Part shown: in pieces, positions 19,801-43,401 of the stretch
Layout: each line of letters opens with the position of its first letter
How positions within the stretch are numbered: the first letter of the stretch is position 1
NCBI GenBank assembly: GCA_973895155.1
Contig: OZ316891.1
Location: 11,716,771-11,780,770, forward strand
Direction of reading: 5' to 3'
DNA length: 64,000 nt
DNA from: Marsupella aquatica
Taxonomy: Eukaryota; Plantae; Marchantiophyta
Program-made: the position numbers and the translations under genes
Notes under the pieces: model-generated
What the model was told of the DNA's origin: nothing
The model's database searches: none
Seen by the model: the letters and a program-made list of their open reading frames with translations, nothing else

Positions 19801-20070
19801 AAGTTCACCATCAATAACGCTCCATTGATGACCATTTGAATCCAACACACCGAGTGAAATCAGATTCTTACGCATGCCAGGTACATACCTGACTCCGGAC
19901 ACTGTGCGCACAGCGCCATCAAACATTTGAATCTTCACAAACCCAATTCCCTCAATTTGACAGGAGTGATCATTTCCCATCAGAACTGAACCGTTTGAAA
20001 TAGAGTAAGAACTGAAAAACTCACGAATGTAACAAATATGAAAAGAGCAAGCACAATCAAGAATCCACAC
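16843..20070 (-). CDS. pol: Copia pol (protease, GAG-pre-integrase, integrase, RT, RNase H)
   Basis: WILDCACSFH (protease-site variant), LWHSRLGH, HSDVWGP, SDNGGEY, PQQNGVAER, YKARLVAKG, LYVDDM, GYVDSD, KHIDVRYHF; uninterrupted ORF. Confidence 0.95.
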   Translation of the reverse strand: MWILDCACSFHICYIREFFSSYSISNGSVLMGNDHSCQIEGIGFVKIQMFDGAVRTVSGVRYVPGMRKNLISLGVLDSNGHQWSVIDGELQVRSGETVILKGSRQKNLYVLQGNTVCGEANVTKSHEEMTQLWHSRLGHMSEKGLAILRKNGLISDLQSCKLEFCEHCILGKQHRRAFGVGTHRSKAVLEYIHSDVWGPSPTPSHSGKLYYVSFIDDYSRFVWIYFMMHKSNVLSIFKKWKAQVENQTGNTIKCLDTRVKSLRSDNGGEYTSMEFEEYCSEQGITRHLTTVYTPQQNGVAERLNRTLLEWSRSMLSQSGLPQEFWAEAVNTAAYLVNLSPSSAINFKTPFEMRYKRQADYHGLVIFGSDAYALTPKQNRTKLDPTSRKCIFLGYQSGVKAYRLWDPIACKLVVSRDVSFNESRLLKEGENTQVSRTDKRKSPIPDLVEGEIGYEVHDRREGVAPIMELVPVPEEPEEFVDAGEQQVDAVELQIVPAHADQPESSARRTSGRTVRAPSRYGQWVDSSQLQEDDFTADDEGDALILEEGEPSSFHEASASKEKQKWTAAMQTEMQSLKDNKTWELVKLPKGQQVVDSKWIYKLKDNSIGGGSKVYKARLVAKGFTQEKGVDYNEVFSPVAKYSTIRLLCVLVVMFGLLLDQMDVVTAFLYGTLEEVIFMRQPLGFVKRGQEELVCRLLKSLYGLKQSPRQWNKRFDDWIRSQGFHRSVFDPCVYLKPVKNVVFGFIVLVLYVDDMLIAAKDRSEIVKLKALLSAEFKMKDLGPAKRILGMEITRDLEAGKLWLTQSSYARKVIARFNMENSKPVSTPLAPHFKLSSAFCPTDDTEKGLMSKVPYDKAVGSLMYLMTCTRPDLAMAMGKVSRYMSNPGKVHWEAVKWIIRYLKGTVDHGLLFDANAKNARSLIGYVDSDYGQDLDRRRSTTGYVFTLGGGCISWRSTLQKCIAQSTTEAEYVAAAEAAKEAIWLDRLITEMGLPQGNVKLHCDSQSALHLAVNQVMDSRVKHIDVRYHFIRQAVSDKLFELVKIDGKLNPADAFTKVIPLESFSRHRDVLQVLQLHHK

Positions 20071-20115
20071 ATCATCTGCTCTCCTAGATGACGTGCACAG
20101 GGCATACCCCCGGCT

Positions 20116-21150
20116 TCATAAAACATACTCATCATTGAGTAAATCAGCTTCTCCATCAGCCCTAGCCACATTTGCCGATGAAGTTTCCGCTGCCTTTCCC
20201 TTACAGTCTCGCTTGAAGTGTCCAACTTGGTTGCACTTCCAACATGTCACCTGCCTCCTCTGAGGGGATTTACCCTTGGACTTAGATCTGGATTTAGATC
20301 TAAACTGGGTTCTACGGTCCCCAGTTGGTCGCTGCATACTCCTCCCACGGTTAACATTGAGGGCAGCACCAGATGATGAAGGCTGTGACGTGATGTGCAT
20401 CTTCTGCTGAAGATCATCACTAAGCAGAGAACTTACCACGTCATTGTATGAAATGGTATCCCTATCACGATGCAACAACACTCGTGATAGGGACTGGTAA
20501 GATGGAGGCAATGAACTAAGAAGCTGCAGAGCCTTCGTCTCATCATTCAAAGTCTCCCCAAGGTTTTCCAAGTCAACGACCATGTCGTTGAAAGCATCCA
20601 CATGGTCTTGCAACTTCGTACCAGATTCCTTCATCCTGAAACTCATCAGTTTGTAGGAAGTGTAGAGCCGGTTCGACAACTCCTTGCGGTGATACTTGCT
20701 CTGCAATTCCGCAAATAAGGACATGCAATCCTTATGTGCACCCAACTGCTTGATGATGGGAGGCATGAGATAGAGTGTAACACACCACACTCCCTGCTCC
20801 TGCATGCGGTCCCATTGTTTCTCATCAACATCGTCTTCACGAGGGCTCAGCAGTTGGCCCATCCCTGACGCATAAAGCACTCCCTTCACCTGCTTCTCCC
20901 ATAGCAAGTAGTCAGAGCGCCCATCATACTTTGTCACTTCATACTTGGGTCCCCCAAGCTTGAAAGTCCCCATCTTCTTCTTTACCGTGAGCTCCGGTAG
21001 TAGTACTGCTTCCTCCACCACACGCCGCACCGGTGATGGTATCGGTGTCACGTGCTCTTCCTCCTGCTCCTCTCTCTGCCCCTGAAACCTCCGCGGTGAC
21101 CCTCGTGCTTCAAGTTCCACGTCTTCGAAAAACTCCTCCGAATCACTCAT
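20116..21150 (-). CDS. gag: Copia gag (UBN2-like capsid plus CCHC zinc knuckle)
   Basis: KYDGRSDYLLW, LLSSLPPSY, CWKCNQVGHFKRDC. Same frame as pol, separated by one TGA. Confidence 0.92.
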   Translation of the reverse strand: MSDSEEFFEDVELEARGSPRRFQGQREEQEEEHVTPIPSPVRRVVEEAVLLPELTVKKKMGTFKLGGPKYEVTKYDGRSDYLLWEKQVKGVLYASGMGQLLSPREDDVDEKQWDRMQEQGVWCVTLYLMPPIIKQLGAHKDCMSLFAELQSKYHRKELSNRLYTSYKLMSFRMKESGTKLQDHVDAFNDMVVDLENLGETLNDETKALQLLSSLPPSYQSLSRVLLHRDRDTISYNDVVSSLLSDDLQQKMHITSQPSSSGAALNVNRGRSMQRPTGDRRTQFRSKSRSKSKGKSPQRRQVTCWKCNQVGHFKRDCKGKAAETSSANVARADGEADLLNDEYVL

Positions 21151-22304
21151 ATGAGAAAGTCACAAAAAATGTTGTTTTTCACAACTTCTCAAAAAACTCG
21201 AAACTCAACACCGCCGCGTAGCCCACAAAGCTAGGAGTCCAATACTGAAAACCGAAATCAAAATCGAAATTTGACGGAAAAGTTATTCAAATTTCGGTCG
21301 AGGTGGGTAAAACCTTGGGAAACTCCCCCGTTTTGACCACCTCAGGGAATAACCGAAATACCAAGTACAACCCGTTGTCGGAATTGCGATGTGATTGGTG
21401 CGCTGCATTGCCAACTTCAATGGCTACGACCTCGTCGAAAAATAACCAAAAAAGTTACCGTTCGGTGGATGAAATCTTTGTCGGACGGTCAAAAAATAGC
21501 TCTCTGGTTTTTTGGAATATTCTATGACCCTTGTACAGGCCCTGTGGGAATTTTGGAAGAACAATCGAGGGGATGACATGTGTCCTCGAACCCCCAAAAC
21601 CCCCTACCACCCTTCGTCGTCGAAATCTGGTCGCGCGCGCAGAAAATACACATGGCAGAATGTACCCCTCGACACCAAACGCAAGATATCTCACTCGGGT
21701 TTTGACTAAATCAAGATCCGATTTCAGATTTGGAAACTAGACTCCGAGGCGATGAAGATCGATATAAGAAGCACCCAAAACGAGGAAAGAACGAGGGAGA
21801 AAAAAATTGGTAAAGATGACAGATTTCTCTCAATTGCCATAGCCAATTTCGAATCAGTTTTTCAAAGAGAAAAAAATGGTACCTTGTCAACAACGAATGT
21901 TGATCAATTGCACTTGGTGTCGTCACCAAGTCCAACAAGGTAATTGATTTTGCTTAGCCTTCCTCTTTGCATCAAAGAGCCAATCCCGGACTCAAAAACA
22001 ATCGTCTTGCCTCAATCTCTCCGTTGAGTCAAAACACTTGACGCTTCTCCCTCCGAGTCGATTGCCAACTTTCTTCACAAAATCCAGAACGACGAAAACT
22101 TAGATCTCTCTGCACCACGAGCTCCGTTCAACGATTTCTTCACACCGTTAGAAAGCTCTTGCCCTGATCTATCCGTTGAGCCCATAAACTCCAAGTTCCA
22201 TGCGATGGAACTCTGGAAAATCCACCAACACTCAACGCTGGAAAAACCGTCATGAAATCCCGTCACGAACACACGTCACCTCCCAAGCATGCTCTGATAC
22301 CAAT

Positions 22305-22779
22305 TGTTGAGCATAGACGACGATCGCAACGGCAAGCCCATGAACCATCCAACGCACAATAGTCGACACAAGAGATACGTGGTTCACCTCCTTGAGGCTA
22401 CGTCCACGGGAACACACAAGAGAGCTTTACTGAACTCTAAGCCCGTCGGCTATACCGAGTCTCCACAGTGTAAGCTCTCCCTATCTCTCAAGTGGCTCCA
22501 TAACAATGAGCCTTGGTTCTACCTCTCCAAGCACACATGCCTCTTATGATATAGTGTGCAACTTAGTTGTACCTAACCACATAGTTGTACCTAACCACAT
22601 AGTTGTACCTAATCACGTAGTTGTACCTAACCACATAGTTGTACCTAATCACGTAGTTGTACCTAACCACATAGTTGTACCTAATCACGTAGTTGTACCT
22701 AACCACGTAGTTGTACCAACCCACGTTGTTGTACCAACCACGTCATACCTAACCTAGACGTAAGAGTAAATACCCAACA
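22305..22779 (-). repeat. Copia 5' LTR
   Basis: Adjacent to the PBS; matches 16177-16651. Confidence 0.95.
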
Positions 22780-23998
22780 CGACCCACCACCATCCTCCCA
22801 ACCTGGTTCAACCCATGTCTGTCCTTGTGGACATTGGAACTGATCATTACTAGCATTTGCCCAATCAGGTTGGGCAGAATCTGCATGCAATGGCAGGTGG
22901 ACAGAATTTCATGTTGTCTGAATCCAATACATCCCAAACAATGTCAAAAATTGATATGCAGTCTGAAATTCAGGAGTGCCATGCCTTCACAAAGAACTGG
23001 CATATAGATATATACTCACATCCCCATGGTTGAGGTGGACGTCCATACCCACGAGATTGTGGGTTTGGACCTGCTCTGCCTCTACCACGGGCATAACCTA
23101 GAGCTTGCCCCCTGCCATAGTATTGGGCACCAGCCTGGGATCTACCACTACTACCACCTCGCCAACCTTGATCAGAGGTCAGCCCCCCCTGCTGGTATGG
23201 TGCATGCACAGGCTTTGAAGGCAAAACAGAACTGGCAGGACACTGCATCACATCACCAACTACAATGTCAGGAACTAAGCAAGGTACATATGTGTAGTAC
23301 TGAACATATGAAACCTCTAAACAAGAGTTTTTAACTCAAAAACCTTGTTGGGAAAACTACTTACATGTTTCTTTTGGGGCTGCTCTGCAATGTATTCATC
23401 TTCATAACCCCCATCCTCATCCATTTCCTCTGGAAAATACTCATCATCTGCATCTTCTTGTCTAGTGTCTGCACCCACCTGTGCAGCATCAATGTCATCT
23501 CCACATTCTGCCATTGTAGGTACGACCTTCTTGCTCAACCTGTCACTCCGACGTACAGGCCCAGAGATAGTGCTGGTCACCCTTCTTGCGTATTCCTTTT
23601 GTTTCTTTGAAAATGCTGTGGCTCTGCGACATTCCAATATGAGAATACAGTCACAATTTCAGTGCCACATTGAACTATTCATGTCACACAAACTCAGCGG
23701 AGGGGTGTAGTTGAGAATCGTTCCCTTACAATTCAGCCACATCCTTTTCCAGATCCAGTTCTGCGATTTTGGCTTTCACGTATGCTCGTTGTTCCATAGC
23801 TTTCCTTTCATACTCACACATCTCTGTGTCACTCTGTTCCATCCTACTGGACCACAAAAACATGTCATCTATGGTCACCCCGTATAACACAATGCAACCA
23901 CAATCACCAGGCATCCATCCATACATCTGTGCTGCTTCAGAATTACTTTATTACACATCCTTCCCCTCACTAATGTCCATGCAAACAATTCATATTAC

Positions 23999-26900
23999 TC
24001 ATGGCACAGGCACACTGTTGGCATCTACATCTCTGAATTCGCCTCCTTCAGCAAATGCATCTACCCTTGTCACAGGAATGAAGTCCCCGCTATCATGAAC
24101 TACAGGCACTTGGTCTGAACGCCGACGATCAAAGGCACTATGAGAGTGTAAATGAAACTCAAGGTTTGATCCTTCCATCCGACGTTGCCTAGCCTGTTTA
24201 TGACACACTACACGCCAACCTGGGGAGTCTTCCACATCCAGGAAGAAAGCTTGCTCCACCTGACTAGGAAACACAAATGGCTTAGACCATTCGGGCAATT
24301 TCCCTCTGAAATTGGCCAGCAAGAAACCGTCATTGTCTCTCTTCATGGTAGCCCTGTTACCAAGCCAATCCTGCCGCACCCATGAACCTTTCATAAGAAT
24401 CACAGGACTGGACACCGCCCCATAGTCCAGAGCCCATATGTCAACTAATTCTCCCACATATCCCATCTCCATCCAGGCCCTGTCGTGATTGTGGCTCTGT
24501 TGCTCAAATACAGTGATGAGCCCGCAGTCATTCGTCACCCTGTAGGCACTGTCACCATCCTTCACTCGGAAGTGATTCCCATATGCTCTCATCCGTTTGT
24601 AAGTCTTCACTTTCAAGCTAGGGGCATTAGACAGTAGGTAAATATCTGCATCCATGTCTGGGTGGGTCTCGTGATGCTCTCTAATTGCCACTCTGATCAA
24701 CTCCATGAAACCTGGAAAAGTTGTTCCTGCAGTGGGATGGGCCGCCTTCAATGACTCATACTCCCTGAACGAACAACCACACAGCATTAGCTTGGGTAAA
24801 CATGAACAGGCTGAAGGAGAAAACCACACGAACACAACATTTAAGCTCATGAACTGGATTATAGCACATGTATGCACTCACTGTATCCAGGGTTCCATCA
24901 CCACAGTGTTGTGCAATACAAAGTCATGTGCCAAGTCTCTCATAGATATGGTCAGGTTCTTTGTGGTTGCAGCCCCTTCCAGTACTTCACCTATCACCCC
25001 TTCCTCCTCATCAGAATTCCACACCCTGGTCTTCACATGCTCATATTGTGCTATGTATTCGGTCAGAAATCCCAGAGTCTCATCCTTGATGTAACCTTTA
25101 GCCATGCTTGCTTCAGGTTTGTAATATGTTCTCACGTGACCTTTGAGTAGCTTCATGTACCGTTCCAAAGGGTACAACCAACGAGCACTCACAGGCCCAA
25201 ATTGGTGTAGCTCTTCCACAACATGGACAAGTAGGTGGGTCATGACATCAAAAAATGCGGGAGGAAAATAAATCTCCAGGTCACACAGCACCTGAGCGAC
25301 ATCTTCTGTCAGTTGTGGGAAGTGTGTTTCATCCCAAACCTTCACACAAATACGACGAAACACATCACTGAGTCGCATGATCACAGTACGAACAGACTTC
25401 TGCAACAGGCCCCTCAGGCATAAAGGCAACACCTGTTGCATCAACATATGGTAGTCATGGCTTTTTATACTACCAAGCTTTCTAGTCATGATATGCTTCT
25501 TGAAAGCACTGCCATAGTTTGAAGGAACCTTCAAAGAACTCAACCTCTGCACAAATAGTTCCCACTCTGTGTCTGTCAGAACATAGGGCGCTTGGTACTT
25601 CAAGAGCACATCAGCTTTGTGGGCATGTGGCCTCAACCAAAGATGGGGTTTCATTCCCCTCTGTTCAAGATCCAATCTCACTGAACCAGTGTCTTTCTCT
25701 CCACACAAGAATCTGAGTAGACTCTCACAAATATTCTTTTCAATGTGCATAACATCAATGTTATGTTTGCTTGGCTCAAACTCCTGCATCGTTGCAATGC
25801 AAAAGCGTCAGGAAATGCCTCAAGTTTAGTCTCTCTCTTTGAAATGAATGCACATGCTCTGAACCAAAACATGTATCCCAATTAGCATCAACTCCAAGAG
25901 GCTTACCCTCCAGTACTTGAGCTCCAAGTCCAATATGCTCAGTCTTTTTACACCATATCGCTTTATTGGATCACTCACTCCATCTTCCCTGCCCCCTCGT
26001 TTGATATAGTCATCCCTCAGTGCTCCCCACTGCCTGATCTCCTCTTTGGTCACTCGTGCCGGGGGTCCACGTTGCTCAATCTCATTGCCAAAGTGTGCAA
26101 TCAGTGCCTGTCTTTCTCTGTAAGGGTGATCTGCCTTCAGAAAACGACAATGGCCCATGTATATCACTTTCTGCAGGGCTCTGGAGTACTCACTGGTGAC
26201 ATTGCGCCCACAGATAGTACAAGCACAATATCCTTTTGTTGTTTGGCCTGATATCATCCCATGGGCTGGGTAGTCAGCTATAGTCAGAATGACAATGGCT
26301 CTAAGGATGAATGGGTTTAACCTCCCAAGCCTCTGTAGGACATCATATGTGAGAACTCCTTCCTCCCAAAGCTTTCTCAATTCCTCCACTAGGGGAGCCA
26401 GAAACACATCTATGTTGGCAGATACAGCACTGTCTGGCCCTGGTATCAGTAGGACCATCAGAACAAAAAATCGCTTTGTAGTCATCCAAGGAGGAAGGTT
26501 ATAATTCAAAATAGTTACAGGCCAGCACGAAAATTTGTTGTTCTTGTCTCCAAATGGGTTTACCCCATCCAATGACAGCCCAAGTCTGACATTCCTCGGC
26601 TCAGCAGCAAATTCGGGATACATCTCATCTATGAGTTTCCATTGCCTTGAATCTGTAGCATGTCGTTGTAGCCCATCATCACTTTTCTTGTCAGTTGCCC
26701 AAGTCATCATCTCCGAGATGGCACGGCTTCTGAACATCCGCTGAAGTCTGGGAATGAGTGGAAAATGACGAAGTACCTTGGCGGGAACCATAGACTTTCC
26801 TGAGTTTCGATACCTGTGCTTCCCACACTTAGGGCATGTCAACGATTCTTTATACTCCTTTCTGAAAAGAACATGCCCATCAGGACATGCATGGATCGAA

Positions 26901-27730
26901 TCATAGTTCAATCCAAGATTAGATATGCATCTTTTTGCCTCGTACATGTTCTTGGGCAAAATATTACCATCTGGTAGCACAGTTGTTCGCAAGAATGCCA
27001 ACAACTTAGAAACCAAAACGTTGGGGACATTGTGGTTGCCGCAAATGTTCAGGAACATGATGACAAATCCCAGTTTAGAACATTTGCTACCGGGGTACAA
27101 AGACTTCCTGCCTTCCTGTATTTGCAGGGGAGAGCCAAACATCCCATCATGCCCAGGGGTTTCCTGCCCTATCTCAAACTCATCAAGAGGCTCTTCGACA
27201 GGGGGCACACTTGCATCTGCAACCGTATCCTCTTCATTGTCCAGCCCATCATGAAATGCATCCAAGTCTTGGAAGATGTCTCTCACCATCTCTTCCACAT
27301 GAATTCCTTCGTCACGTGGTGCTGCCTGAGCACCATCCCGTTGGAGAGCTGACAACCCACAGAGACCAGCTACAACATTTTCAAATGCACCAGGCAGAAC
27401 CTCACTTGCCCGTCTTGCAGCATTGGCAGCATCAAATTCTAACCTCCACTCCTCGTCGGAAGAATCTTCCTCTGCAGGATCATTCCAAACTCGATGTTGT
27501 GGATCTCTTCCATGAACCGCGATATGCCGCCAAACCTCATTCAGACCCCTGGTACGGGATCCTTGGCAGATTGCACAAGGATATCTCATCCTACTGGCTC
27601 CTGAAAGTCTGGTTCGTAACCTTTCATGCTGCCAAAGCTTATTATCATGGCGTGATATCCTTGTGGGATGATGCAAAGGCAGTGCCTCTGCCCTGGGCTG
27701 GGTCTGGGGAGGGTGGTGACCAGGGTGCAT
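23999..27730 (-). CDS. TnpD-like CACTA transposase of the inner element (transposase-associated Zn motif, Transposase_21, DUF4218, DUF4216)
   Basis: Exons about 27730-25907, 25783-24882 and 24764-23999 with in-phase GT-AG introns. Motifs YPCAIC...WRHI, IHACP, RNVRLGLSLDGVNPF, NLPPW, DYPA, DVMHIEKN, KSHDYH, PPAFFDVMTHLLVH, WLYPLER, PFVFPSQVEQAFF. Confidence 0.92.
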
Positions 27731-28163
27731 TGTAACAGGCTGGGAGCTCTGCAGTCATGGACAGCAGTGAACAAGGATGCCTAATGGTGGTATTTGTGTT
27801 CCATATATCCCTGACTGTATCTGCCAAAAGAGTTAACATAACGTGTACTAAATTCTCACAAACCCTAAACCACCCCAAAAGAAAAAAACAGGTTCGCAAG
27901 TAGTGTACCTATTGTCAAGTGAATGACACAAAATTCCTAAATGTTGGAGGGTGTCACCACCTCCTCCGCTGTCCTCAAATGTACCGCCTCTGCATGTACG
28001 TTTACAGTGACACCCCCAGGCAGCAGGAAACAACAATCCGCCAACAGTAAAATAAGCCCAACTGCCACCAACCATAACAAGGTACATTAGTTCAAAGATC
28101 ACATTTATTTCAATGATCTGATTTATACAAAAAAACTTGTGTCCAAACTGATGCTACTACTTC

Positions 28164-29042
28164 TCACTCTGATTCAGAATCGCTAATGACCCATTCCTCA
28201 CTTGTTGTCTCATAGTCCTCTCTGTAAGGATCCTGACCCTTCCATGGCCAGGCCTCAAAAAGATCATAGTCCATTGGGTTTTGACGCTTCCCAGCTGCTA
28301 CTGATTCCACAAGCCAAGCATATGAAACCACAAACACATTATGGGACATGACATAAAAGCGAATGTCTCCCTTCCCAAACTTGCGGCAGGCTTTGGGATA
28401 TGACTTAGTAATGACATGAGTGGTGTCCTCTGTTATATTCTCCTCCACTGTCCCACCTAGGTCAAGCACTGTGGACTTGTACACTTTGCACTTAACCTCT
28501 CCAATTCCCGCCTCCACAAATACCATGCTCAGCCCTTTCAGAATGGGGGTTGGTTGCTTCGTCTCCTCAGCCAACATACACTTCAGCCTTGTAGAGCTCT
28601 GTCCTTTGTTGAGTACAGGTCCATATTGGAGATCAGCAAGCCGTGCCTTTGCTTCCCAGACTTCTTGTTCAGCCCAAGCTGATGCAATAGCTTCTTCATC
28701 CTCCCACAACTCATATTGCTCAGTATCCTGTACAATCTTATGTGCTATGGAATCTGTGATCCAAGAGGCCTCAACTACTTTTAGGCCTTGCTTAGTAATT
28801 GCAGAATTCATGTAGGACCATGACCACTTCTTTATCACTGATAGCCATGTCCCTGCAACAACATGTGTAGTCTCTGGAGTGATGTCCTGAACTACAGTGC
28901 CATGGAGCTCAGAGAATCGTTTCTGTACAGTTGGCCAATGCACTTTGGTCAACCCATGCTGGCCATGGACCAAAATCGCTCTGACCCCTGTAAACACTGC
29001 TGGGTGGTCACACTTTCTACGTTTACCAGGCTCCATGTACAC
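28164..29042 (-). CDS. Tandem BRCT-domain protein (Pol lambda-type BRCT), cargo of the inner CACTA
   Basis: Two related repeats: VFTGVRAILV...LHGTVVQDITPETTHVVA...VVEASWITDSI and ILKGLSMVFVE...LGGTVEENITEDTTHVIT...VVSYAWLVESVAAGK...DYDL. Both show the BRCT GG, THxI and WxxxS hallmarks. Confidence 0.8.
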   Translation of the reverse strand: MYMEPGKRRKCDHPAVFTGVRAILVHGQHGLTKVHWPTVQKRFSELHGTVVQDITPETTHVVAGTWLSVIKKWSWSYMNSAITKQGLKVVEASWITDSIAHKIVQDTEQYELWEDEEAIASAWAEQEVWEAKARLADLQYGPVLNKGQSSTRLKCMLAEETKQPTPILKGLSMVFVEAGIGEVKCKVYKSTVLDLGGTVEENITEDTTHVITKSYPKACRKFGKGDIRFYVMSHNVFVVSYAWLVESVAAGKRQNPMDYDLFEAWPWKGQDPYREDYETTSEEWVISDSESE

Positions 29043-29339
29043 ACACTCTACGTGATGACAGTGAATTTTGGAAGAATGGGTTCACTTGACAATACAAGGA
29101 CAACAAAATTCCTGCTTTTTGAGTTGATCTGGCCCACTGGTGCTCAGGTCCGATTTTGATAGGTACAAGGGATATGTGAACAATACGTACTAGGCACCTG
29201 CACGGATGCAGGACATTGTTTGAATATATACTACAAAATCCATATCCGTGGTGAAATGAAGTGCAACCAACTTGTCATGGCACATACATATTTTGTTGTA
29301 AAGGAGGATACATTCAATGACAAACTTCATTGCAGTAGC

Positions 29340-29483
29340 AAATGCCTTTGTACCTTAAATGCTAAATATATTTTACTTTCTGTGCAGTCTGCTAAATTGT
29401 AGAGTCTATCTAAATGCCTTTGTACCTTAAATGCTAAATATATTTTACTTTCTGTGCAGTCTGCTAAATTGTAGAGTCTATCT
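29340..29483. repeat. Exact 72-bp tandem duplication
   Basis: aaatgcctttgtacc...agagtctatct at 29340-29411 and 29412-29483. Confidence 0.95.
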
Positions 29484-29494
29484 CATGCGCAGGC

Positions 29495-30174
29495 ATGGCA
29501 CGGCCTAAAATTCAAGCCAAAAAGCGTGTGACAGAGGTGAGAAACACAGGTGTACTTGGGGCAGATGCTACTAACTTCTCTGCAAGTCAGATTTTCCAGA
29601 AGGCAGCTCATTGTTGTGCCATTTGTGACGATGGTGGGGGCCTGGTCATTTGTGAGGGCCTTTGCATGAGGCATTTCCACCTCAACCCGGAGTCTGACCT
29701 TGCTGCAGAAAACAACTGTCCAGGGGTGGGCCTCCCGTCAACACACCAGGGAGACTGGATGTGCACTGATTGTTTGGAGAAGCAGGCTAAGTGTGCACAG
29801 TGTGGGAAGTTGGGGTCCTATGAGGGCTCTGTTGATGCTGCAGCAAATGTTAGGAAATGTCCAGACCGTTTTTGTGTGAGATTTTTCTGTTTTGAGTGTT
29901 TGCCTGCTCATGCCACAGCTTGCCCACTTCATAGGTGCAAGGCATGTGGTGAGCATGATGATGACTACTGGACTGAAATAGTCCACTGTGCTAGGTGTCC
30001 CACTATGTGGCACTATCATTGCCTGAAAGATCATCAAGCAGAGGGTTATGCTTGTGACAGAGAAATCTATGATCACTCTGCACATGGTGTTGATCGATAA
30101 TATTTTATTGTCATCGCCATGCCATTGATCCTACCTCGCGCACTCCTGTGAAAGATCACATATCTTGGCTGTGA
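29495..30174 (+). CDS. EDM2-like composite PHD-finger protein, cargo of the inner CACTA; 1-bp frameshift near 30098
   Basis: CAICDDGG.LVICEG.CMRHFH...CTDC...CAQCGKLGS...CPLHRC...CARCP..WH..CL. After the frameshift it reads IFYCHRHAIDPTSRTPVKDHISW, matching the EDM2 pattern LIYC..HEID..L.TPVRDH. Confidence 0.8.
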
Positions 30175-32531
30175 AGCTGAACATTGTACATGCACAGTGC
30201 ACCTGATGTGGATGTACTATTTTTTGAGATTGCAGAGATTCCAATTTTGAAAAGGAGTTGGGTAGGCGAGTTTATATAGGCAGCACTTATCTTGTGCTCT
30301 AGCGTCAGTGGCTGGGTACATGCCTATACAAACTTATCCTTACAAGCCTTCTTGGAAGTATTTAGGCTGAGTGGTCATTTTCATAAACACTTTCATCAGA
30401 CTGCTAAATTAAAACAGGACTTCTAAGTTGTAAGCGTATAAATTATCAGGCATGCAATTAATCAAATTGCCCTATGAATGGCCACACAAGGATGCAGAGC
30501 ACACATACTTTTGGTATGTTGAGCCCACACACAAAACTGATCCCCTAATACAATTTCTCCACCAACACCTCAATTTTAATTGTGGCTATGATTCACCAAA
30601 GGAGATCTGCAACAACATTTCATGCATTTGAATCACATACAATAGTCGTGACATGTAAAACAGGCATTCTTCGAAGAGGATTGGTATGAAGCAGTGTCAT
30701 AAGGGTTGAAATTTATACATCCTAAATAGGTTATGATAGTGGCTGAGACAAATAAGTGAGGCATAAATCATTTTGCATATTATCACATGGCCCATTAATT
30801 CATTCAACGTTGCAATGTTCACCAGGTTAAAGCAGTCATGAAAGCAGTCTTTCAATAGAGACTTTTATGCGAGTTTGCTAGCTTCTTAAATTAGGATATT
30901 TTGCTTAGTGCAGGCATAATAGGATATAAGTTATGTACTGTTGACCCTAAACCCTGGACCCAAAATTGCTCATACATCAAAATTTTAAGTAAATATCCTC
31001 TGTGTTGAAGTCAGAGTGTTAAGCTATAGGTCAATGGTATCTGGTCTGTGCATGCGGTGTGACAAGTGGTCCTCTAGAGCATGTGATCCAAACATGTGTA
31101 GACACCAAAGTCACCGATGGTGGGGTCTGGGAGGGCAGGACAAGTGACATCACCAGGCACACTGCAGGATGGCGAGTGGTTCCAGATGATACATTGTGCT
31201 CTGTGCAAAAATCAGCATCCAAGAGAACGGTCATCCAATTCTGGGCCAGAAGCCCTACAGGCAGGACAGTCATATTGGCAACTGTGTACACACCCTTGGC
31301 ACCTAATTTGTGGCGGGTCATGTACAAGAGACACAAATACCAAGGATGTCGGGAAGGGAACTGAAGCAGGTAGAGGCCGGCTGTAGTTGTTCCTGGAAAC
31401 AACAGGGTACTCAAAGTACCATGCAGACTGGGCTGGAAGGATCCCAAGTCTGATATACTCAAGGCGCAACATCTCTGCCTTGCGTGCAAGTCGCACATGT
31501 TCAGCGTTGCGGGTCCTCACCATAAGTGTTGCTTTCGTTGTGATGTCCTCTGTTCACGTCCTTTGATGAGCAAGGTGAGCAGGAGGTCGACTTGCCTCGC
31601 CAACAGCAACCACCTAAACTAATCAGTTCCCACTCATTGTCTTGGTTCCAACTACAGGTCATAGTATACACATAGCATGAAACGTGCATAGTACATATTT
31701 GATTCTGAGTTTATGAGTTTCCTAAGACAAAGAGCTTGGTGATAAACCCATATTCTCGACGGACATGTATATCAATCATATTAAACTCCTGTTTTTTCAT
31801 CCAGAAAGACCGAAAGTCTCACCTTGCAGGTTGCAGCAGAGAGAAAATTCACTGGTTGTCATGTTGTGCAAGTGAACCTCCACTGATGCCCCGGTGTAGC
31901 CCCTCAGATGCAGGTGACACTTACCAACTCCCAAGTTGCCTGGTCTAACAGAAAATGCTTATATCTTCAGAACTTTATAGAGCAAGTACATGATCACATA
32001 CTTCTGGATCTATTCATATTTGGAACTCTTGCCAACTACAACTCCCATTATGCACAAGCTCACATCAACAGAGAAAGATACAGAATGCATACTTACTATG
32101 GCTCTAAGCACCTTCACTACCTTGTTGAACCTAGTCCTGAAGTCTTTTCAGCGTGTTTGTTGTGCTGTCTCCTTTGGCACCCAACACCTTAGTCCTTGAT
32201 GTAACAGAATGCGATTTTACAAGTTAGATGCTTTGGAACCTTCTATGGTCTTAGCTGAATTGATGTCATCGTAAGTGGTGAAAGACAAGGAAGACGAAAG
32301 CTGGTTGAAGAGCTGTGGACAACACACTAGCATGAAGTGCTTCAACCAATCCACTGCCAAACGGAACTCTTACACAGTCACATTCTTTTAGTAAACAAAA
32401 ACTCAGTCAAACTTCAGAATCAAAGTACAGACTCTGAAGGACCAAAGGAGGATGTTGTGAGTTTCTCTGTTGTTTAATGTGTTACCCTTCTAGTTTCGAA
32501 GTTAGCAAATGCTGAATAATGTGTCTACCAG

Positions 32532-32874
32532 ATCTTCGAAAAGAAGCCCACCACAATTAAGAACTTCGGTATCTGGGTCCACGTATCAGAGTCGTACAGG
32601 TTATCACAACATGTACAAGGAATATTGTGATACCACAAGAAACGGAGCTGCAGAGTAGATGTATGATGAGATGGCTTCTTGTCATAGAGTTCGGTTCCCT
32701 TGCATCCAGATCATGAAGACTACGACAGTCCCTGTCTCTCTGTGCAAGCGAGAAAGTACCAAGCAGTTCCATGATTCAAAGATCAAGTTCCCCTTGACAT
32801 ACTGCAAGATTCAACCTCCATTGCGAAAGCTAAAGAAGACTTACAAGGCCACCAAGCCCAACACAATTGTTTGA
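32532..32874 (+). pseudogene. RPL18A: Captured last exon of 60S ribosomal protein L18a (eL20)
   Basis: [29 protein letters not shown]...[15 protein letters not shown]...[19 protein letters not shown], with a frameshift and an internal stop. Preceded by an intron-like acceptor (ctaccag). Confidence 0.92.
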
Positions 32875-35800
32875 GTAGTGCGGGTGCAGGTTCCCAATTT
32901 TGAGACAATTTGGCTCATTTTATGTCCCGAGGGAATCCTGGAGTTTATGTATTGAGTTTCTAGGTGAAGATGCTTAATATAAGGAAATTCAATTATCACT
33001 TCGTTCCCAACTTCTATTAATTGAAAATACACAAGCTGGAAGCAAGAAGACAAGCCACAATCTAGCATCTTAGCCAAACACAATCGTCCCGACAAAGCAA
33101 AACTCAGCTGGACAGAAGTCACTCGGATCCACAAAAAATTGAAGATTCACCTCCAAGCCGGAGGCTGATCACTTCAGTACAGCAGCTTCTAGACGGAACA
33201 AACTCTGCTCAGCCCCACAGAAACACAAATGTTAAGGCTCCAAGTCAGAGCTCACAAACAGAAACTCAGATAAATAACATTCAAAATCTGTCCAGGTTTG
33301 TGCAAAGTGTACATATTCATTCTTCTGGAATGAACACGCAATGCATACATCACCTAGACACAGTCATTATAAATCATTGGGCGATTGGGGACCACTAAGC
33401 AGGTGTGTTCCTATTTCGAGGCTACAGGAAAGGATAGAGTGACACCAAACTCAAGAGTACACCAAAAGAAAAACAGCAAGAACCAAAGTCAATCATGTGT
33501 GGATAAACTGCACATGGGAAGTTCCCCTGAAGAAGCATCAGTTGCTAACATTGTCACCCGAACCACACCTAGTTTATGACCTCAATGTCTTCAGCCTCAA
33601 TATCCAATCCTCAGCCCCCTGGTGCTTCCGTGTTTGTTCTGAAAATTTCTGTGATGAAATAATTATTCAATACATTCAATAGGAGTTCAGACAATCTGAA
33701 GAGGACTTTGGACTTGAATGGGGGACAGCGTGGCCATATAGTTATCCTTGTGGCCTTCAGCTACGTGTCTCACGCTGAATTTCACTTTCCAGTTTCGAGA
33801 GTTGTGAAGGTCTAGTTTTAGTAACTTCCTCCTGACTCGACTTGGGAGCATTCTCTGTATTTGCTAGCTTGTAGTTAGCTTTGACTCCTTTCAGCTTAGT
33901 TGACGACCCTCTTGAGATATTAACAATTAATATCAAAGGCATTGAAACAAAGCGGGTGGCAGTTTCAGTATCTCAGGCAATGCAAAATTAATCCATACTT
34001 AATCAGCCCTGGCCACACATTCCTTCAAAGCCCCTCATACTAGCAAGCAGGTCTGGCCTGTGAATCTTGTAGTGCTTAACGATACAAAGCCTTCCCAAGT
34101 ACCAATTCAAAAGTAGCAGAAATAGATCGAAAGCTAGTTCCGATGATAGCTCCCAAAAGCTTTCCTCAGCCCAATTCCTATGCACATCAGAGGAGCTCAA
34201 ACCATTTAGAAATGAGATCACAGATTACTCTTGACAATCTCAAAAATGCCACAACCTAAGCACTGACAGCTCCGTCCCCCCATTCTAATTTCTCCGACAA
34301 GTTTGCCTTAAAGCACATCCACTCGCAATTCAAGCAGATTCAGAATCATCATAGACAATAGAGTGTTCTACCATAGCCCACGGTAGGTCCACGGCCATCG
34401 TAACAAACGCTCCACCCCCGGGGCTTATTAGTATTGCTCACTTTTAAGAAGGGCAGTTTTCGCAAAAGCAGTCTAATTGCCTAGACTGCACTAGAAAAGT
34501 TGGAGGCAATATCACAGTGGAGCATTCTGCGTCTAAGGGAGAGCGACGCCGTTCAGGAGATAGATGCGCGAGAGAGTGAAGATGGTGGGGAGCGGAAGAC
34601 GGGTTGGGACTGGACCCTTGGTGCCGGTGGGTAATATGTGGGGTTTCAATGAACAATGGGCCAGTTTGAGGAGGATTAAGAAGCGCGCACCCCACGTTCT
34701 TGTGTGGTGGTTGGGTGGGGTTTTGTTTGATAGAAGAAGAAATCACCATTCTCTTATGGAAGAAAGAAAATCGCAGGAAACAGTGGGCGGGAGAACAAGG
34801 CATGTAATAGAGAACAACGAGGCATGTAATAGAGTACTTGCGGTTACTCTAACGGTGCATGAACACTCACCTTTGTCTTCCGCTTTGTCTGCTGTGGCCA
34901 ACAAATCCCAGAGCACTGCCGAGCTTGGTGGTTGCTTGATGGTTGAAAGTGCGTAGCTCACGTCCCTACCTCAATGTCCAACTCAATGTGGGATGCAGCA
35001 GCTTCTCTTGGTCGCATCTCCTCTTCGTCGCATCTCCTCTTGGTTGCATCTCCTCCTTGTCGCAGCTCCTCTTGGGGTTTACAGCTAGCGCGCAGCAACG
35101 CTCGATGGTTGACAATGCGCAGCTGAGCTAGGAGAAGAACTGAATGACTGTGGTTGCTCTTCTTTGCAGTCCAAGCACCCGGCTGGCAGAATGCTACGAC
35201 ACCTGAAAGAAGCGCACTTTCAGCTGCATGGCCGGGACTAGTAGAAACCGTTGACGGTGAAGGGCATTCTCGGTTTGGACCTCCTCTCTCCAACCCCTTC
35301 TAACCCGCACCTCCAAAGTTGATTCGGGAGTTGATTAGCAATAACGTCGCTCCTATGCCAAAGGCACCAAGAACCAAGCCAAAAGAAAGGGTTTAGCAAA
35401 GGGAGAGCGATGTAGTGTGCACTGATCAATGACTCAAAGTTGACGTCGAATCCTCCATTGCGCTAGCTATTGGCGATTGCCACACAGAGAGCAGCCGTAT
35501 GTAGCAAACTGTAATGCAGATACTCCCGTCAAAGGTCGATGCGTCACACTCAGCTTTAGAGGAAGGATAAACGATTGAGCAGCATTGCATTGTGAAAAAA
35601 TGTTGGAGAAGCACATTGCTTCCAGGCCCGAACTCACCTCCTTCCCCTTTCACCACTTCGCAGCTCCTCCAAGAGACATTCACTCAAGGGCACATCACGC
35701 AGTTGCTTGCCCTCCTCAGAAGCTCAACACCACAGCCACCAAAGTTGTCAGCTCCCACTGCAACTAAACAGGTCACTACCAAAAGCCCGCTCCCACCGCA

Positions 35801-38627
35801 GCTGAACAAGTGAGCGACACAAGAGTGTAGGACCTCCGCCAAGCCCAGGGCAGCAGCTCAATGAAACTCAATTTGCAACTCGTCTCACTCTCGCTCTTGC
35901 TGCAAAGAAAAAAAAGCGCAGGTCAAACTCCTTTGTGGCCTCAGTCCCCACCGCTTTCCCCAAGCTATGGACAACTACTAGCAGCTTGCGCTCACAGCAT
36001 GACATCCAGGTCTTTAGCCAACTGCACACTGGAAACCGAGAGAAGTGAGCGCAATCACGCAAGGCCAAAAAAGACCAAAGTTGAGCCAAAGCAAAACTTT
36101 ACTAATGTATTTACAGTCAAGCATGAGGGCAATCAGGTAAGCAGAAGACCACGCATTCCCGCAAAGAGTTGTAGGTTCTCGTCACTTCCTCGCCTCTGTA
36201 TAGAAGGTCGATCGTTGTGTCTCGGGTACCCAATGATAGTGGAGATGAATGCAAATAGGCCTCACCAATCGCCAGTCATCCGCGATAAACCTCCCGACAA
36301 CCTTGCTCCTATACACCTTAGCACCCGCGTTGTCACCACAGGAAAGACGAATGTAAGATTTAGGGCCCACCTAAACCCTATAGTGAGATTGCAGTCGACA
36401 ATGGGTCATATAGCAAAGGTCGAAGCTCCAAGCCCTACGCAATGACATGAAATCCCACCTCCAAAAGCGCTAAATGTATTGACTGAGTGCGATCAGGTGC
36501 AAGAGTCGAGAGCAACTGAGGAAAAGTGCATTATCGGGCGCAAAGTGTTTGGCCTTGGATTCCCTTGCAGAAACGTGAAGGAAAACCCTGGTGGTAGCCG
36601 TCGACACTTTGTGCAATTTTCCTTTACAAAATCTGTTTACCCTAAACATTGAGTTGACTGGAAGGACTCGTTCATAGGCATTCTGCAAGCACCTAACACA
36701 TTTAGACGTAAGTTCACAGTTAGGATTAAACGGTAACTAAGACCAAGGGTGCATTTTTTTTTGGGGGGGGGGGCTTTTAGTTGGGTATTTTGGGTATAGT
36801 CATTGGGTTAGATAAATATCCTAAGTCACCCAGATGGCAAAAAACAACACCTACCCTTAAACTCACCCTCCTCAAGCATAAACCCTCTGAAAACCCATTG
36901 GACATTTGGAGTCATTGGCAAAAGAGGGTTAAATGGATGAAGAATGGACCGGGGGGGATGGATGCCGACAATCCAATGGTCCCTAAACCCCCATCCCCTT
37001 AACATGCAACCCCCGACCCTTGACATCAAACCCCCCCCTAAACCCCCTTTAGTGAAAACCCAGCCACCCCCTAGCCTTGACATATAAATTGCCCCGGTTT
37101 CTACTAGTGTGTGAAAACTTTCCCGCTCATGAAACAACAAGACTCTCACTTTGCGGGCGCACTCTCTCTTTCTCCAAGTCCCTCCACAAAAGCTTTTGGC
37201 AGTCAAAAGTTTAGGGCAAAAGCTATTGCCAGTTGTATCAACTTGCAATTGCGCAACATGGTTCATTGGAAGAGGGCTTCCGATAGAGAAATTGATGCAA
37301 CGGCATTGCATTGTGCACTTAAGGAAAAAGAGGTCCTAAATTGGGCCCTTCAATATTCCCATATGAAGGGGGTTCCATTTGATATTGGCTAATTATGGGG
37401 TATATATGCAGAGCAAATTTTTAAAATGAGTTAGTGGATGAAGTGAGTTTTAATATGTGTGTGAGCAGTATGTGACAAGTACCACTAATTGGTTGTGGTG
37501 ACTTTTTTAAGGTAACTATGTATGTAGAGTATTAGGGTTTAGGGTGCATCATTATTTTTGGGGGCATGGCACAAATTTTCACACCTTTTTGAACTCAGTT
37601 GCGGCCGTGTACATGAATGTTAACTTAAATTTGGTTGGTTCTTGTCTAGCTAGAATCACAAATTTGCCCTACTTACCTAAACTTCAATTAGGGTAAAAAT
37701 GTCATGTATACTTTCTTACAGGGGAACAATAAAGAGCAACTCAGTGATGGTTAAAGCAAAGGGAGGTAACTATATATAATTGCATGACATAATGTGATTA
37801 ATATGATGGATCCAAAATCATATGTATTGGGCAAGGAAATCATGTAAGTCATGGTCACTTATATAACTTCAATATACTTGCCTTAACTCAGTTACAGAAG
37901 CAACTTTCCCAATAGTTAAATACATGACTTCCCAAAACTTCACCAAAAGTGAGTCAAGAAGATGTAACAAAGATGACACCCTAAACCTTGGAGTCACTTA
38001 TTTTCAAAGGTCTCACACAAGTCATGTAAGGCTGGGTCTCATAATGGCTCGGTTTCTTCTAGTGCATGTAATCATGATACAACGCAGGGCCAGCACTACT
38101 ACCTCAACTTTTGTCTAATGCATATGCATTGTGGGAACCCGAGCATCTAAAAGGTATAACATCATGTATATAGTCAATGTTATTAGTACAGATTTTTATG
38201 CTTGCCCTTCTTTGTTGTGCCATGATATATGTGGGTAAATGTCTAAGATTCCACAACTTGACGGTTGCTAATTACCATCCAAACTTACATTTTGTTTCCA
38301 GTATTTTCCTCCTACTTCTAGATTTGGCAAATGTTCCAAAAGCCACGTGACCTATAGGCACTGTTGAGCCCGGGTCTCATTCAGGTAATAATCTAACCTC
38401 ACTTAGGACATAGGGTATTACAATTTTCCCAAAGGTTATAATGTGGTTTCTTCTTGCATGACACTCACCTTAATTTGGGTTTCATGCTAACAAATATAAA
38501 AGGGTAATAAAACCCCATGTATAAACCAACCTAATTGTTTTTTGAGTTCATTTTTTTGAAAATCGCTTTATATAAGGCCTAATTTTTCCTAATCATGCCC
38601 TACATGCAATGTAATGTGGCACTGGAT

Positions 38628-39794
38628 ATGTCCTCTTCCTCTGAACTATCCAGTAGTGAGTACTCCTCCGATGACGATATACCCCCTCCTCCTCAGCCCG
38701 AGGTTACCGGTCCTCGTGGTCCACCCCGAAGGCTTTGTGACTGCACCAGATGTGTGGGCCAAATTTCTCAAAAATCTTATGTGTGTGCTCAACATATCGA
38801 GAGATATGGACGTCATAGAGGTCTTACTCCCGGGGCTTCTTCATCCCATATGGTAAGTTTGTTTCAATTGATTGTCGTTCTTTACTGTTATTTTTAGAGG
38901 TGAATCAATGTTTACACATATGGTTTACACATTTGGTTGTTTGTGGGTGTTTGCATGGAATAGGGATCCAGTATGCGTAGATTGGTGACACCACCATCCT
39001 ATGTCCCATCACAAGGAGTTTTAGATGCTATAGGCAATGCACTTTCACAAGCCTTGGGTTTGGGAATTAGTACCAGTCATGGGACAGAAGGGGAACACCC
39101 TCATGTGCCCACTGAGACACAAAGACCCTGGTCCAGGCCCCAATCCAATAGGAGGCCACGAGCACCCAATGACCCATCCAGAACACTAGTTCAGGGTAGG
39201 TGGGGTGTTTGTTCATTCACTGGCAAGTGTGCCTCTATCATCAAGGATTGGGAACCTATCACTCTTGGCTTGCCTTATTTTACAGATTTTGATGAGGAGA
39301 TTGTGGTTTGGAGTAGACGTTGGATTGTGAAAACTTCCACACTTGGAGAGAGACATGGATATGGAGTATTTGCTTGTGAGGATATCATCATGGATGAGGA
39401 GGGTGGGTCAAGTGTTCGTGGTAGAGAGGGTCCTACTTTGTTCCCATATGGTGGACCCATCTACAAGAGAAGACATTGGAACATGATCCTTGCACAACAT
39501 CCTGAGTGGAAAACATATGCTCTAGAGATGGATACTTTTGATGGTAGCACTAGAAGGTATAGTGAGCAGCGGGTGATAGACGGTGATCCCATACGTAATG
39601 GGAATATTGCTGGTTTCATAAATAGTACTGTGGGGACTCGGCCCAAGCGTAGGGCCAATTGTGAGTGGGTTTTTACTGATGGTCCAATGCCGGCACCATA
39701 TGGCACGACATATCATAAGGACCATTGCTTAGTTCTTGCTACTAGGACCATTAGAGCAGGAGATGAGTTATTCACACACTATGAGTGGGATTAG
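38628..39794 (+). CDS. SET-domain protein isoform: exon 1 (38628-38852, Zn motif) spliced to a SET exon (38964-39794)
   Basis: SET motifs VKTSTLGERHGYGVFA, YGGPI, IDG..RNGNIAGFINS...ANC and LVLATRTIRAGDELFTHY. Phase-0 donor gtaagt at 38853 and phase-0 acceptor tag ending at 38963. Confidence 0.8.
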
Positions 39795-42700
39795 GAAATC
39801 ATGTCCTTTATCCTCTTGCACCTGTTTTGGACTTCCCATTTACTATTATATATATATGGCCTTTGGGCTCATTTTGGAGTAATAAGGTTTTAGCCCATGC
39901 ATTTACTTTAATTCTTAATGTCTTGAATGAATGGTGTTAAGTCTATTTTAATTTGTTGTACTTGGTCAAATATACATGAGGAGGTTTTTTGGTTGTAATG
40001 TGCATAGAATGCGCAACCATCTCAAAAAATGTTACCACGAAGGTTGAGAGCAACATATCGGGAGATGGGTATGCCAAAAGAGGGAGAACCATCAGAGGGT
40101 GATTCCTCATCAAGTAATGATGTAGGTGGTGCTGATGAGGAAGCCGCACCTCGGACTGATGACCAGGTCATGCATGATCAAGATAGAGCCATGGATGACT
40201 TCATGGTTGATTGGTTTGGTGCCGATGTTGAGGATGATGTGCCTCACATTGGTCATGAGGTTGGCCCTTCAAATGACCCACGGCCACAACATACTCCAGA
40301 GGGACAACAACAATGGAAAGAGGCAGAGGAACATGCTCGAACACCTATTTTTGAGGGTGCTCGGTTGAGCTGTCTTTTTGCCATATTGGGGCTCTTGAAC
40401 ATTCAAGCCAAACACAAGGCAAGCAATTCTATGTTATCAGACATATTTGAATATTGTCATGACTTGATGTTACCCTCGGAGAATGTGTTGCCAGGGACTT
40501 GGAAGGATGCAAAGAAGGTTCTCTCATCCATTGGTATGGATTACCATATTATTCATGCCTGTGTGAATGATTGCATGTTATTTCACGGGGATACAGCCCA
40601 TATCACAGAATGCATAGTGTGTCATGAGCCACGGTATGAGCCAAACATGCTAACCCAGAAGGTACCAAGGAAAGCAGTTCGTTGGTTCCCCATAATTCCT
40701 CGCTTGTTGCACATGTATAGATGTTCTAACTTGGCCGAGTTGATGGTATGGCACAAGAAACATCGTTCGGAGCCCGGTGTCATGCAATTACCAGTTGACT
40801 CTCCTGCTCATAAACATGTGGAATCAACATGGCCAGATTTTGAGCGTGACCCTCGGCATGTGCGACTGGGGTTGGTATCAGATGGAGTTAGCCCTCATTC
40901 ACTTGGAGGGAAGGGGAGACCTACATCGGTCTGGCCTGTGGTTCTCATGAATTACAACCTTCCACCATGGTTGTCCATGAAAAAGGGTTTTTTGTTGCTA
41001 TCTTTGATTATCCCAGGGCCAAAGAAGGTGAAGAACATGGACACCTATTTGACATTACTGGTTCAGGAACTCCAGAAATTATGGGAAGGAGTATGGGCAT
41101 ATGATGGTCGAAAGACTACATGGGGTACCCCACGGGTTTTCAAACTCAAAGGGGTTTGTATGTGGACCATGCATGACTACCCAGGTAAGAACTTTGTTGT
41201 TTAAATGCATCATATTCTAATGCATGGTATCCCCTCATTTCCATGTGCTAATCCTAACATAATGTGTGTTTATATGACCAGGATTTGGCTTTGTGAGTGG
41301 GTTGCAAACCCAAGACTACAAGGCTTGCTCCACTTGTGGCCCAAGCCTTGGTGATGTAGCCAAGTATTCATCACATCTTCGCAAGATTGTTTATCTTGGG
41401 CATACAAAGTTTCTTCCAATGGGACATCAGATGAGGCGTGACCCACTACTATTTTCCTCTATTGATATGCCCTTTGGTGACGAGCGTGATGTACCTGAGC
41501 CAACAACTTTTACACGCTGGAAAGACATGGCTGCAAGAGTGGCAGACCCAGAGGATCCCATACAATTTGAGGGTAGTGGCTTGACAAGGTGGAGTATATT
41601 AACCACTTTGCCCTATTGGGGTGAGTTGAAGATCCGCCATCTATTAGACCCCATGCACATTGAGGGAAATGTGGGAAAGGCTTTGATAAAGGCTTTCTAT
41701 GGAGAGAAAGACACTAACTTCAGGGAGGCTTGTGAGGATCTTGAGATGCATCCAGACGTGTGGGTCATAAGTGATCCTATCACAGGGATCGAGCATCGAC
41801 CTTCAGCTCCATGGGTGCTTCCTGTTGACCAGAGAAGGGAGTTTCGGAATCGCATAGAAGACATGCGGTTTCCTACTGGTTATGGTGCCAATCTCCGAAA
41901 GGCCTTTGGGATGGAGGACAATCATAAGTGGCCAAGGTATCTCAAGACACATGACTACCATAGGTTATTGCAGCACATATTGCCTGAGGCCATAATAGGT
42001 TTGGCAAGTGAAGAAGTGCAAGATGCCCTTTGGTCATTGGGAAAACTATTGAGATGGGTATGCTCTAAGGAGATATATACTGACGAGATCCCTGGGATGG
42101 AGGTTTTGGCAGCAGAGGTGGTATGCAAGTTGGAGAAGGCCCTTCCTCCTTCCTTTTTTGACTGTCAAGTGCATTTACTTGTTCATCTTGTTCATGAGGT
42201 GGCCATTGTAGGTCCTGTGCATTGTCGGTGGATGTATTGGCTAGAACGATACATGGCAATGTTAAAAGGTTATGTACGTAACCGTGCACGGGTTGAGGGA
42301 AGCATGGCTACAGGATACTTAGCAGCTGAGAGTATGTTCTATTGTAGTAACATATTGGCCACAATTGATTGTACCTCTCCCCGTACTTGGGTAGAGGAGA
42401 GGGAAGATGAAGAGGATCGTTTAACAGGTGCTAGGAAAACTCGCATGTTGACACCAGTGGAGGTGAAACAACTGACCACATTCATGTTGAGTAATAACAC
42501 TATCATGGAAGAATGGAGGGATTTCTACGAGGATGCCAAAAGTAACAGCACAAGACCAAGGATTTTTCCAAAGTACCTTGACTATATGAAGGAGAAGTTA
42601 GTTGAGGTGGATGACATGGTGGTCAGGGGAGAGAGTGTATTACATTTTCTGGCTATCACAGATGATGTTCGTACCATTGTTCATGGTCCCTTGAGAGTGG

Positions 42701-43401
42701 TTACAACAAGGACAACAATGTGGACACAAGAAAGACATTTCAGGTGATCTCCATCTACCTTAGTAACCTTTGATTTGAATCACTTGGTTTAATTTAATTC
42801 ATTTGTAATACAAGCACGTATATTGAAGAGGCAGATTCTTGGTGTGTTCAATTAATTGGAATATGTTTGTGTCTATTTTTGTGTAACATATCCTTATGGT
42901 TTGATGGATTTTAGGATTTCTTCCCTTGATGAGAAGAGGGGTCGTACCTTTGATTGTGGAGTTCAAGGACAATTCTCTCAAGATTCCCGCAGCAGTCGCC
43001 ATGACACAAATATTATTCGAGATGTTGTGCCACATTATGGAAAGGTAGAAGAGATTCTATTGATATCTTATGATGCACAATCAAAGTTTGAAGAGTATGT
43101 CTTCAAGTGCAAGTGGTTCAAAGTGAACCTTGCAGGTAACAATCCTACTGTGGTTCAAGATGAGTGTGGATTTACACGACTGAAGACGTCTGCCACTAGT
43201 TTCCAGCCATCTCATTGGCAAACATCAGAGCCGTTCACTTTTCCAAGTCATGTGGAACAATGTTTCTATATTCCATACCCCCCAAACCCAGAGGAATGGT
43301 CACTTGTCATCACATATGTGCCACGGTCTCGTTCAATCGTTGGGGAAAAGCCTGATATTCTGGTTGTGTCCCAACCTGAAGATGATGAGGACCAAATTTG
43401 A
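38628..43401 (+). CDS. TnpD-like CACTA transposase of the outer element
   Basis: Exons 38628-38852, 40008-41184, 41282-42743 and 42915-43401; all intron phases are compatible. Motifs IHACVNDC, RHVRLGLVSDGVSP, NLPPW, HDYPG, DPMHIEGN, KTHDYH, PPSFFD...HLLVHL, WMYWLER, EPFTFPSHVEQCFY. Confidence 0.92.

Follow-up and report, generated by a model that had tools for sequence, protein, structure and literature searches.

A frameshifted member of a conserved stand-alone EDM2-type triple-PHD family lies inside a CACTA transposon of the liverwort Marsupella aquatica

The factors with which plant transposons are known to counteract silencing, VANC and TnpA, are sequence-specific DNA binders. Accessory genes of transposons also include the Plavaka PAGs (PAG2/PAG3), SET-domain genes on HarbingerS elements and Helitrons, and VANDAL VANC (bioRxiv 10.1101/2025.02.11.637652), as well as TET/JBP genes on fungal EnSpm elements (PMC12730594) and PHD fingers in Chlamydomonas Gypsy elements and CR1 LINEs (PMC9940879). 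Together with Spm TnpA, these cases resemble the locus described here in that a transposon carries an extra conserved chromatin-related gene, yet each of them is a DNA-binding factor, an enzyme or a domain within a polyprotein fusion, whereas at our locus a plant CACTA element carries an EDM2-type reader that is free and effector-less. Arabidopsis Spm elements retain H3K9me while active (bioRxiv 10.64898/2026.08.24.746577). EDM2 itself, at ~1300 residues, is defined by 2.5 atypical PHD repeats, the last unit being C4HC2H (PMC7529245, PMC3776765), carries in addition acidic, PGR, ELP and proline-rich regions, and works with the partners AIPP1 and ASI1 (PMC7529245, PMC7472560). EDM2 binds H3K9me2 through its PHDs, and distal polyadenylation is promoted by the AAE complex (PMC7472560, PMC7529245).

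The window analysed here is the whole 64,000-nucleotide stretch of M. aquatica DNA, and a stand-alone EDM2/NSD-type triple-PHD ORF occupies 29495..30174 of its plus strand. The reading frame opens with an ATG at 29495 and closes with a TAA at 30098-30100, giving 201 residues (MARPKIQAKKR...HGVDR), and the family's last 24 residues (IFYCHRH...TPVKDHISWL*) follow in the adjacent frame as far as 30174. The full length of 680 nt equals 226 codons and a stop, minus one base; correspondingly, tblastn with the intact relative P0001 aligns to the window in frame 2 at 29495-30106 and in frame 1 at 30100-30171. A Trp codon shared by P0001 and P0002 is also substituted at the break, so that at least two changes must have occurred there. 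Beyond the break lie the family-invariant finger-3 ligands C206 and H209, and also H222; because finger 3 is thereby deprived of two zinc ligands, the copy in the window is probably non-functional. Forty codons precede finger 1, and the Pfam matches follow in the order PHD-1st_NSD (residues 39-93), PHD_NSD (96-140) and PHDvar_NSD (148-180), at E values of 4e-5 to 3e-3 that each fall under the curated cut-off. The original prediction of an EDM2-type Cys/His cluster in stand-alone form, with its own basic N-terminus, a stop at the domain end and a 1-bp frameshift near 30098, agrees with this complete three-finger cassette running from the MARPKIQAKKR start to the DHISWL tail. Its description of the gene as free of introns holds for the coding part and is amended upstream, where a 5′-UTR intron is possible given an acceptor-like AG 2 nt before the ATG. 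Just 5′ of the start, at 29340..29483, is a perfect 72-bp tandem duplication with an acceptor-like tract.

P0001 aligns to residues 254-455 of Cryptomeria EDM2 with 34% identity (E 6e-32). The atypical PHD cassette of EDM2 recurs in the family, down to the spacer behind the finger-1 His, a last finger of C4HC2H type and the tail YCxxH...TPxRDH. Intact members have every ligand of the 2.5 repeats, as does the window copy if it is read through the break. In contrast to EDM2, family proteins measure ~225 residues and lack the RFD, acidic, PGR, ELP methyltransferase-like and Pro-rich regions; they also have Cys for the finger-2 His and a deleted inter-finger insert, form a long-stemmed clade, and include a copy within a transposon. 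The first PHD cluster of NSD1/2/3 has the finger order, Pfam families and short finger 2-3 linker of the family, and an 11-sequence family profile matches NSD2 and NSD3 with E values from 2e-11 (NSD2) to 5e-10. However, NSD1/2/3 possess PWWP and SET domains, both missing from the family, and lack in our alignment the EDM2-type spacer and tail.

Intact relatives, which the earlier analysis had proposed to look for, were recovered. A word search confirmed three among 43 candidates, at 80, 72 and 51% identity and none of them with the frameshift; DHISWL is the exact C-terminus of P0001 and P0002, and P0003 extends 9 residues beyond. The full search returned 226 matches, and among the best 150 of these short proteins lead, followed by long EDM2-like proteins, mostly at 33-45%. 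A profile search added 13 of 400 candidates. A clade profile outscored a host profile in 36 of 175 collected proteins, and removal of three BRCT proteins with negative scores left 33 short relatives of 93-257 residues, a count to be read knowing that 14 of the 33 built the profile, that several are cluster-mates and that contig ends or errors of gene calling may account for some of the truncated ones. The three motif tests are passed in full by 18 of them; each of the other 15 fails one or more. Neither the best 150 of the 226 representative matches nor the 33 members include a longer, fused form of the clade cassette. The family is conserved and unannotated: annotated NCBI genomes hold none of the 20 clade representatives looked up, and 19 of the 20 lie on contigs of <5.7 kb, though this says little in a collection made up mostly of short contigs. 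The family seems absent from annotated proteomes, probably through repeat-masking.

Pattern scans for relatives yielded no confirmed match among 29 in viral sequences and none among 94 in a first metagenome scan; a second metagenome scan confirmed three of 136, namely a clade member (L001) and two NSD-like PHD+SET genes (L002 and L003). The clade member, on a 1.5-kb sequence, is intronless with one frameshift and 14 CpG observed against 40 expected, and its 753 bp of upstream sequence have no transposase or BRCT similarity. Transposon context for the family was observed at one locus, that of the window. Some annotated host genes do encode an EDM2-type cassette by itself or at the C-terminus, in Marchantia (P0024, 280 aa) and in Riccia and Calypogeia (690-770 aa). 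Liverwort EDM2-like paralogues that end at or shortly after the PHD cassette are P0014, P0021, P0024, P0033 and P0037, and further short, PHD-only EDM2-like proteins with basic N-termini are P0016, P0020 and P0026.

Phylogenetic analysis used 36 rows, comprising the window copy, 14 short relatives, 19 host-type sequences and the two NSD-like genes as outgroup; P0013, which escaped the cutting pattern, is absent. All 15 short rows group together as a clade apart from host EDM2s (support 97/94) on a stem of 1.36 substitutions per site, and a quick 84-row tree agrees. Grouping this clade with the liverwort paralogues bearing a terminal PHD cassette costs 0.2 log-likelihood units (AU p=0.48), and three other sister groupings cost 9.5-11.2 units (p 0.18-0.23), with none rejected. 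Between the window copy and P0001, differences affect 2 of 51 columns conserved in 14 other relatives and 42 of 174 other columns (p=0.0006), consistent with purifying selection at the protein level while the gene resided in the element. The refuting case of a neutral, single-copy fragment of host EDM2 is at odds with this distribution, with the intact relatives, with the 33 short proteins and with the 15-row clade. CpG observed/expected counts are 10/39 for the PHD ORF, 40/106 and 24/63 for Tnp2, 10/47 for a neighbouring BRCT ORF and 11/44 for a SET ORF; unlike the PHD ORF, flanking host-type exons have 101/123 and 22/27. CpG decay equal to that of the transposase, in a protein that stayed constrained, fits selection inside methylated DNA, and we infer long residence of the gene there under protein-level constraint, followed by a recent loss.

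The element that carries the PHD ORF (element B, 12672..38064, minus strand) has the termini of a CACTA/EnSpm transposon, with CACTA/G ends, a TIR of CACTAGAAGAA(T/A)CCGAG matching at 16 of 17 positions, and the 3-bp TSD CAT on both sides, and it encodes both Tnp2/TnpD and TnpA-like genes, in keeping with the CACTA setting already proposed for this locus. Its Tnp2/TnpD exons (23999..27754, minus), in which two introns were deduced from splice signals, contain a weak Transpos_assoc match, Transposase_21 (E 4e-69), DUF4218 (E 5e-28) and DUF4216. The TnpA-like exons (13527..23658, minus) contain Transposase_24 (E 1.5e-4, under the curated cut-off, within 15032-15685) and are split by a Copia retrotransposon (16177..22779, minus) with identical 475-bp LTRs and the TSD CGACC, which evidently inserted very recently. 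The Copia LTRs contain 18-bp internal repeats, and at ~20116 one in-frame stop separates the gag frame from the pol frame. A search around the PHD ORF for an element of its own nested there gave no convincing TIR pair and no Helitron-like end.

Directly upstream of Tnp2, and head-to-head with the PHD ORF at a distance of ~460 bp, is an intact twin-BRCT ORF of 290 residues (28164..29036, minus). Two of 493 candidates, at 59 and 54% identity, are stand-alone BRCT relatives, and such relatives measure 294-295 residues at 54-60% identity, so the neighbour evidently also belongs to a conserved stand-alone family. Weak BRCA1 and ligase IV matches were observed in the twin-BRCT ORF. On the 3′ side of the PHD ORF, a decayed Cys-rich reading frame or frames (31023..31619, plus; two internal stops over ~200 codons) with CpG decay like that of the transposase is possibly a third cargo gene, though searches of Pfam and PDB with the Cys-rich frames at 31.0-31.6 kb gave no match. 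A decayed, intronless copy of ribosomal protein L18a (32520..32875, plus) with a stop and a frameshift, also inside element B, illustrates by contrast what a neutral captured passenger looks like. Pack-CACTA elements, like this locus, have host-derived sequence enclosed by CACTA TIRs and a 3-bp TSD. Unlike their gene fragments, the PHD family has its own start, basic leader and stop and is conserved, with constrained ligands, down to ~30-50% identity, and element B also encodes a transposase.

Element B is evidently inserted into another CACTA, element A (8474..44342), such that two CACTAs are nested: a ~470-bp repeat of element A (12191-12605 versus 38065-38471, 77%) runs across the insertion point. 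Element A has CACTAC ends, the flanks CGT/CAT and subterminal TCGCAA/TTGCGA clusters at both ends; the Arabidopsis Spm1 TnpA motif is CCVTCGCAAA (bioRxiv 10.64898/2026.08.24.746577). A SET-domain ORF (38964..39794, plus; E 5e-6) lies directly upstream of element A's Tnp2 (40008-43401). With a short Cys-containing exon it spans 38625-39794 (plus) just 5′ of that transposase, to which both are possibly spliced; this region returned no PDB match. CHG observed/expected is 0.53-0.67 in the SET and Tnp2 portion of element A (38964-42740) versus 0.98-1.29 in the element B ORFs (24878-30174), a pattern not followed by the TnpA-like ORF of element A (1.03) or by Copia and LINE sequences (1.09-1.21). 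CHG depletion was considered as a trace of protection and set aside as inconsistent across these ORFs and retroelements. Elsewhere in the window are a Replitron HUH endonuclease ORF (45262-46467, minus; E 7.5e-12) split by a stop and followed by tandem repeats at 46.9-47.5 kb, and a near-complete LINE (51299-57120, minus) with a DUF4283 ORF1, endonuclease, RT, zf-RVT and in-frame stops. The transposon families of the window are those of a plant host, and the Replitron domain together with the liverwort EDM2-like matches would suit a non-seed plant. Large host exons at 689-4523 (minus) have a weak HEAT match and presumably resemble the condensin II subunit CAP-D3.

Structure prediction was undertaken for the intact relative P0001. 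AlphaFold2 gave a pLDDT of 67 with 11 sequences and of 74, at a pTM of 0.72, with 18, and a disordered basic N-terminus. Fold searches with this model recovered PHD tandems, including NSD PHD-C5HCH, as partial and modest matches (best Z 5.5), and no solved EDM2 cassette was among them. In an alignment with AIRE, the R2-contacting D312 corresponds to Glu54 in the window and to a nearly invariant Asp in 18 relatives, and the K4-contacting D297 corresponds to His39, where an H3K4me0 reader of the AIRE/BHC80 type would carry an acidic residue; in AIRE, D297A weakens H3 binding >20-fold (PMC2261226). None of the 15 clade rows has an acidic residue in the six positions before the first Cys of finger 1, whereas one or two occur in each of the 19 host-type rows, and the acidic patch of EDM2 is replaced in the clade by QxAAH/QxSPH. 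The clade has furthermore exchanged His for Cys in finger 2 and lost a ~25-30-residue insert between fingers 2 and 3. With the acidic patch missing from all 15 rows, H3 binding by the clade may have been lost. The His at the D297 position, the acidic loss, the finger-2 Cys and the insert deletion together mean that EDM2 specificity cannot be assumed.

Overall, the ORF is best explained as a frameshift-bearing representative of a conserved family of small, free-standing triple-PHD proteins of EDM2 type, whose intact members are candidate transposon accessory proteins that would mask nucleosomes from host silencing readers; we favour this reading tentatively. The PHD gene is probably transposon cargo, and it is fairly likely that the family is generally transposon-borne. 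In the proposed mechanism, the Lys/Arg-rich N-terminus would import an intact protein into the nucleus and may touch DNA; once there, the protein would bind nucleosomes and conceal them from the silencing readers of the host, and it would likely help such transposons to weaken their silencing. Finger 1 somewhat more plausibly retains than lacks a grip on the H3 N-terminus, through the acidic residue equivalent to AIRE D312, with a K4/K9 preference changed by the His at the D297 position. If these steps hold, the protein might act by occupancy, as a competitor beside TnpA-type activation, a possibility we regard as somewhat doubtful and which its lack of an effector domain favours. A bare reader would compete with EDM2 more plausibly than replace it. 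It counts against the masking model that such a reader, in contrast to VANC or TnpA, would not recognise its own element by sequence. The decoy role that the original prediction named as an alternative may still apply. All functional readings are weakened by the single locus with transposon context, by the broken state of its copy and by annotated host genes of comparable stand-alone form, such as Marchantia P0024.

Three other explanations rank below nucleosome masking, in the order of a captured host gene, transposase tethering and an EDM2-like adaptor. The family could instead comprise fast-evolving host PHD-only genes, as in Marchantia, with element B having captured one copy that decays as a passenger. 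The annotated host genes whose cassette stands alone or is terminal, the AU result for the liverwort paralogues (p=0.48), the L18a copy as proof that element B picks up junk, and the broken state of the window copy all agree with such a history, which we nevertheless consider unlikely in view of the transposase-equal CpG decay in a constrained protein, the 15 of 33 members that fail a motif test, the 20 representatives looked up without one in an annotated genome, and the intronless coding part at both loci seen (the window and L001). Slightly less probable is that PHD and twin-BRCT proteins serve the transposase, tethering it to a chosen chromatin state and passing ends to repair, with no anti-silencing role; the head-to-head arrangement of two conserved stand-alone families directly upstream of Tnp2 would suit this, and PHD fingers of Chlamydomonas transposable elements have been proposed to limit harmful insertions (PMC9940879), but the upstream sequence of L001 is devoid of BRCT similarity, and the PHD protein shows neither a linker nor an additional domain through which it could bind the transposase.

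The original prediction held that the protein reads H3K9me2 and promotes full-length transcripts in the manner of EDM2. Under such a scheme, H3K9me2 binding would be followed by recruitment of AIPP1/ASI1, and long, intron-containing transcripts of the element would use distal poly(A) sites. Although intact members possess a complete EDM2-type cassette, the properties of EDM2 and the AAE complex cited above fit this role, and the genes of element B are spliced, every non-PHD domain of EDM2 is missing, the finger 2-3 insert of ~25-30 residues is deleted, and the acidic residues are gone in 15 of 15 rows. The absent domains and the acidic loss leave the prediction unsupported, and we regard this explanation as improbable.

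Beyond nucleosome masking as such, a CACTA lineage could have turned the EDM2 reader module into a free, re-specified decoy within a modular kit, with PHD and twin-BRCT genes in one element and a SET gene in its neighbour; this is a speculative extension, and reader-only anti-silencing of this kind would be so far undescribed. Among the titles and abstract openings returned by literature searches, none describes a CACTA element with an EDM2-type PHD gene, and subscription papers, Repbase or supplements of curated TE libraries may hold one; in a 2026 gene-capture review the term ‘PHD’ does not occur (PMC13317346). If the favoured explanation is true, cargo consisting of a maintained histone reader that is EDM2-related and effector-less would represent a strategy different from that of VANC and TnpA. 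The cargo family would also provide a natural probe of what the EDM2 PHD cassette reads and binds, and its intact members, at ~220 residues, are small enough for direct testing.
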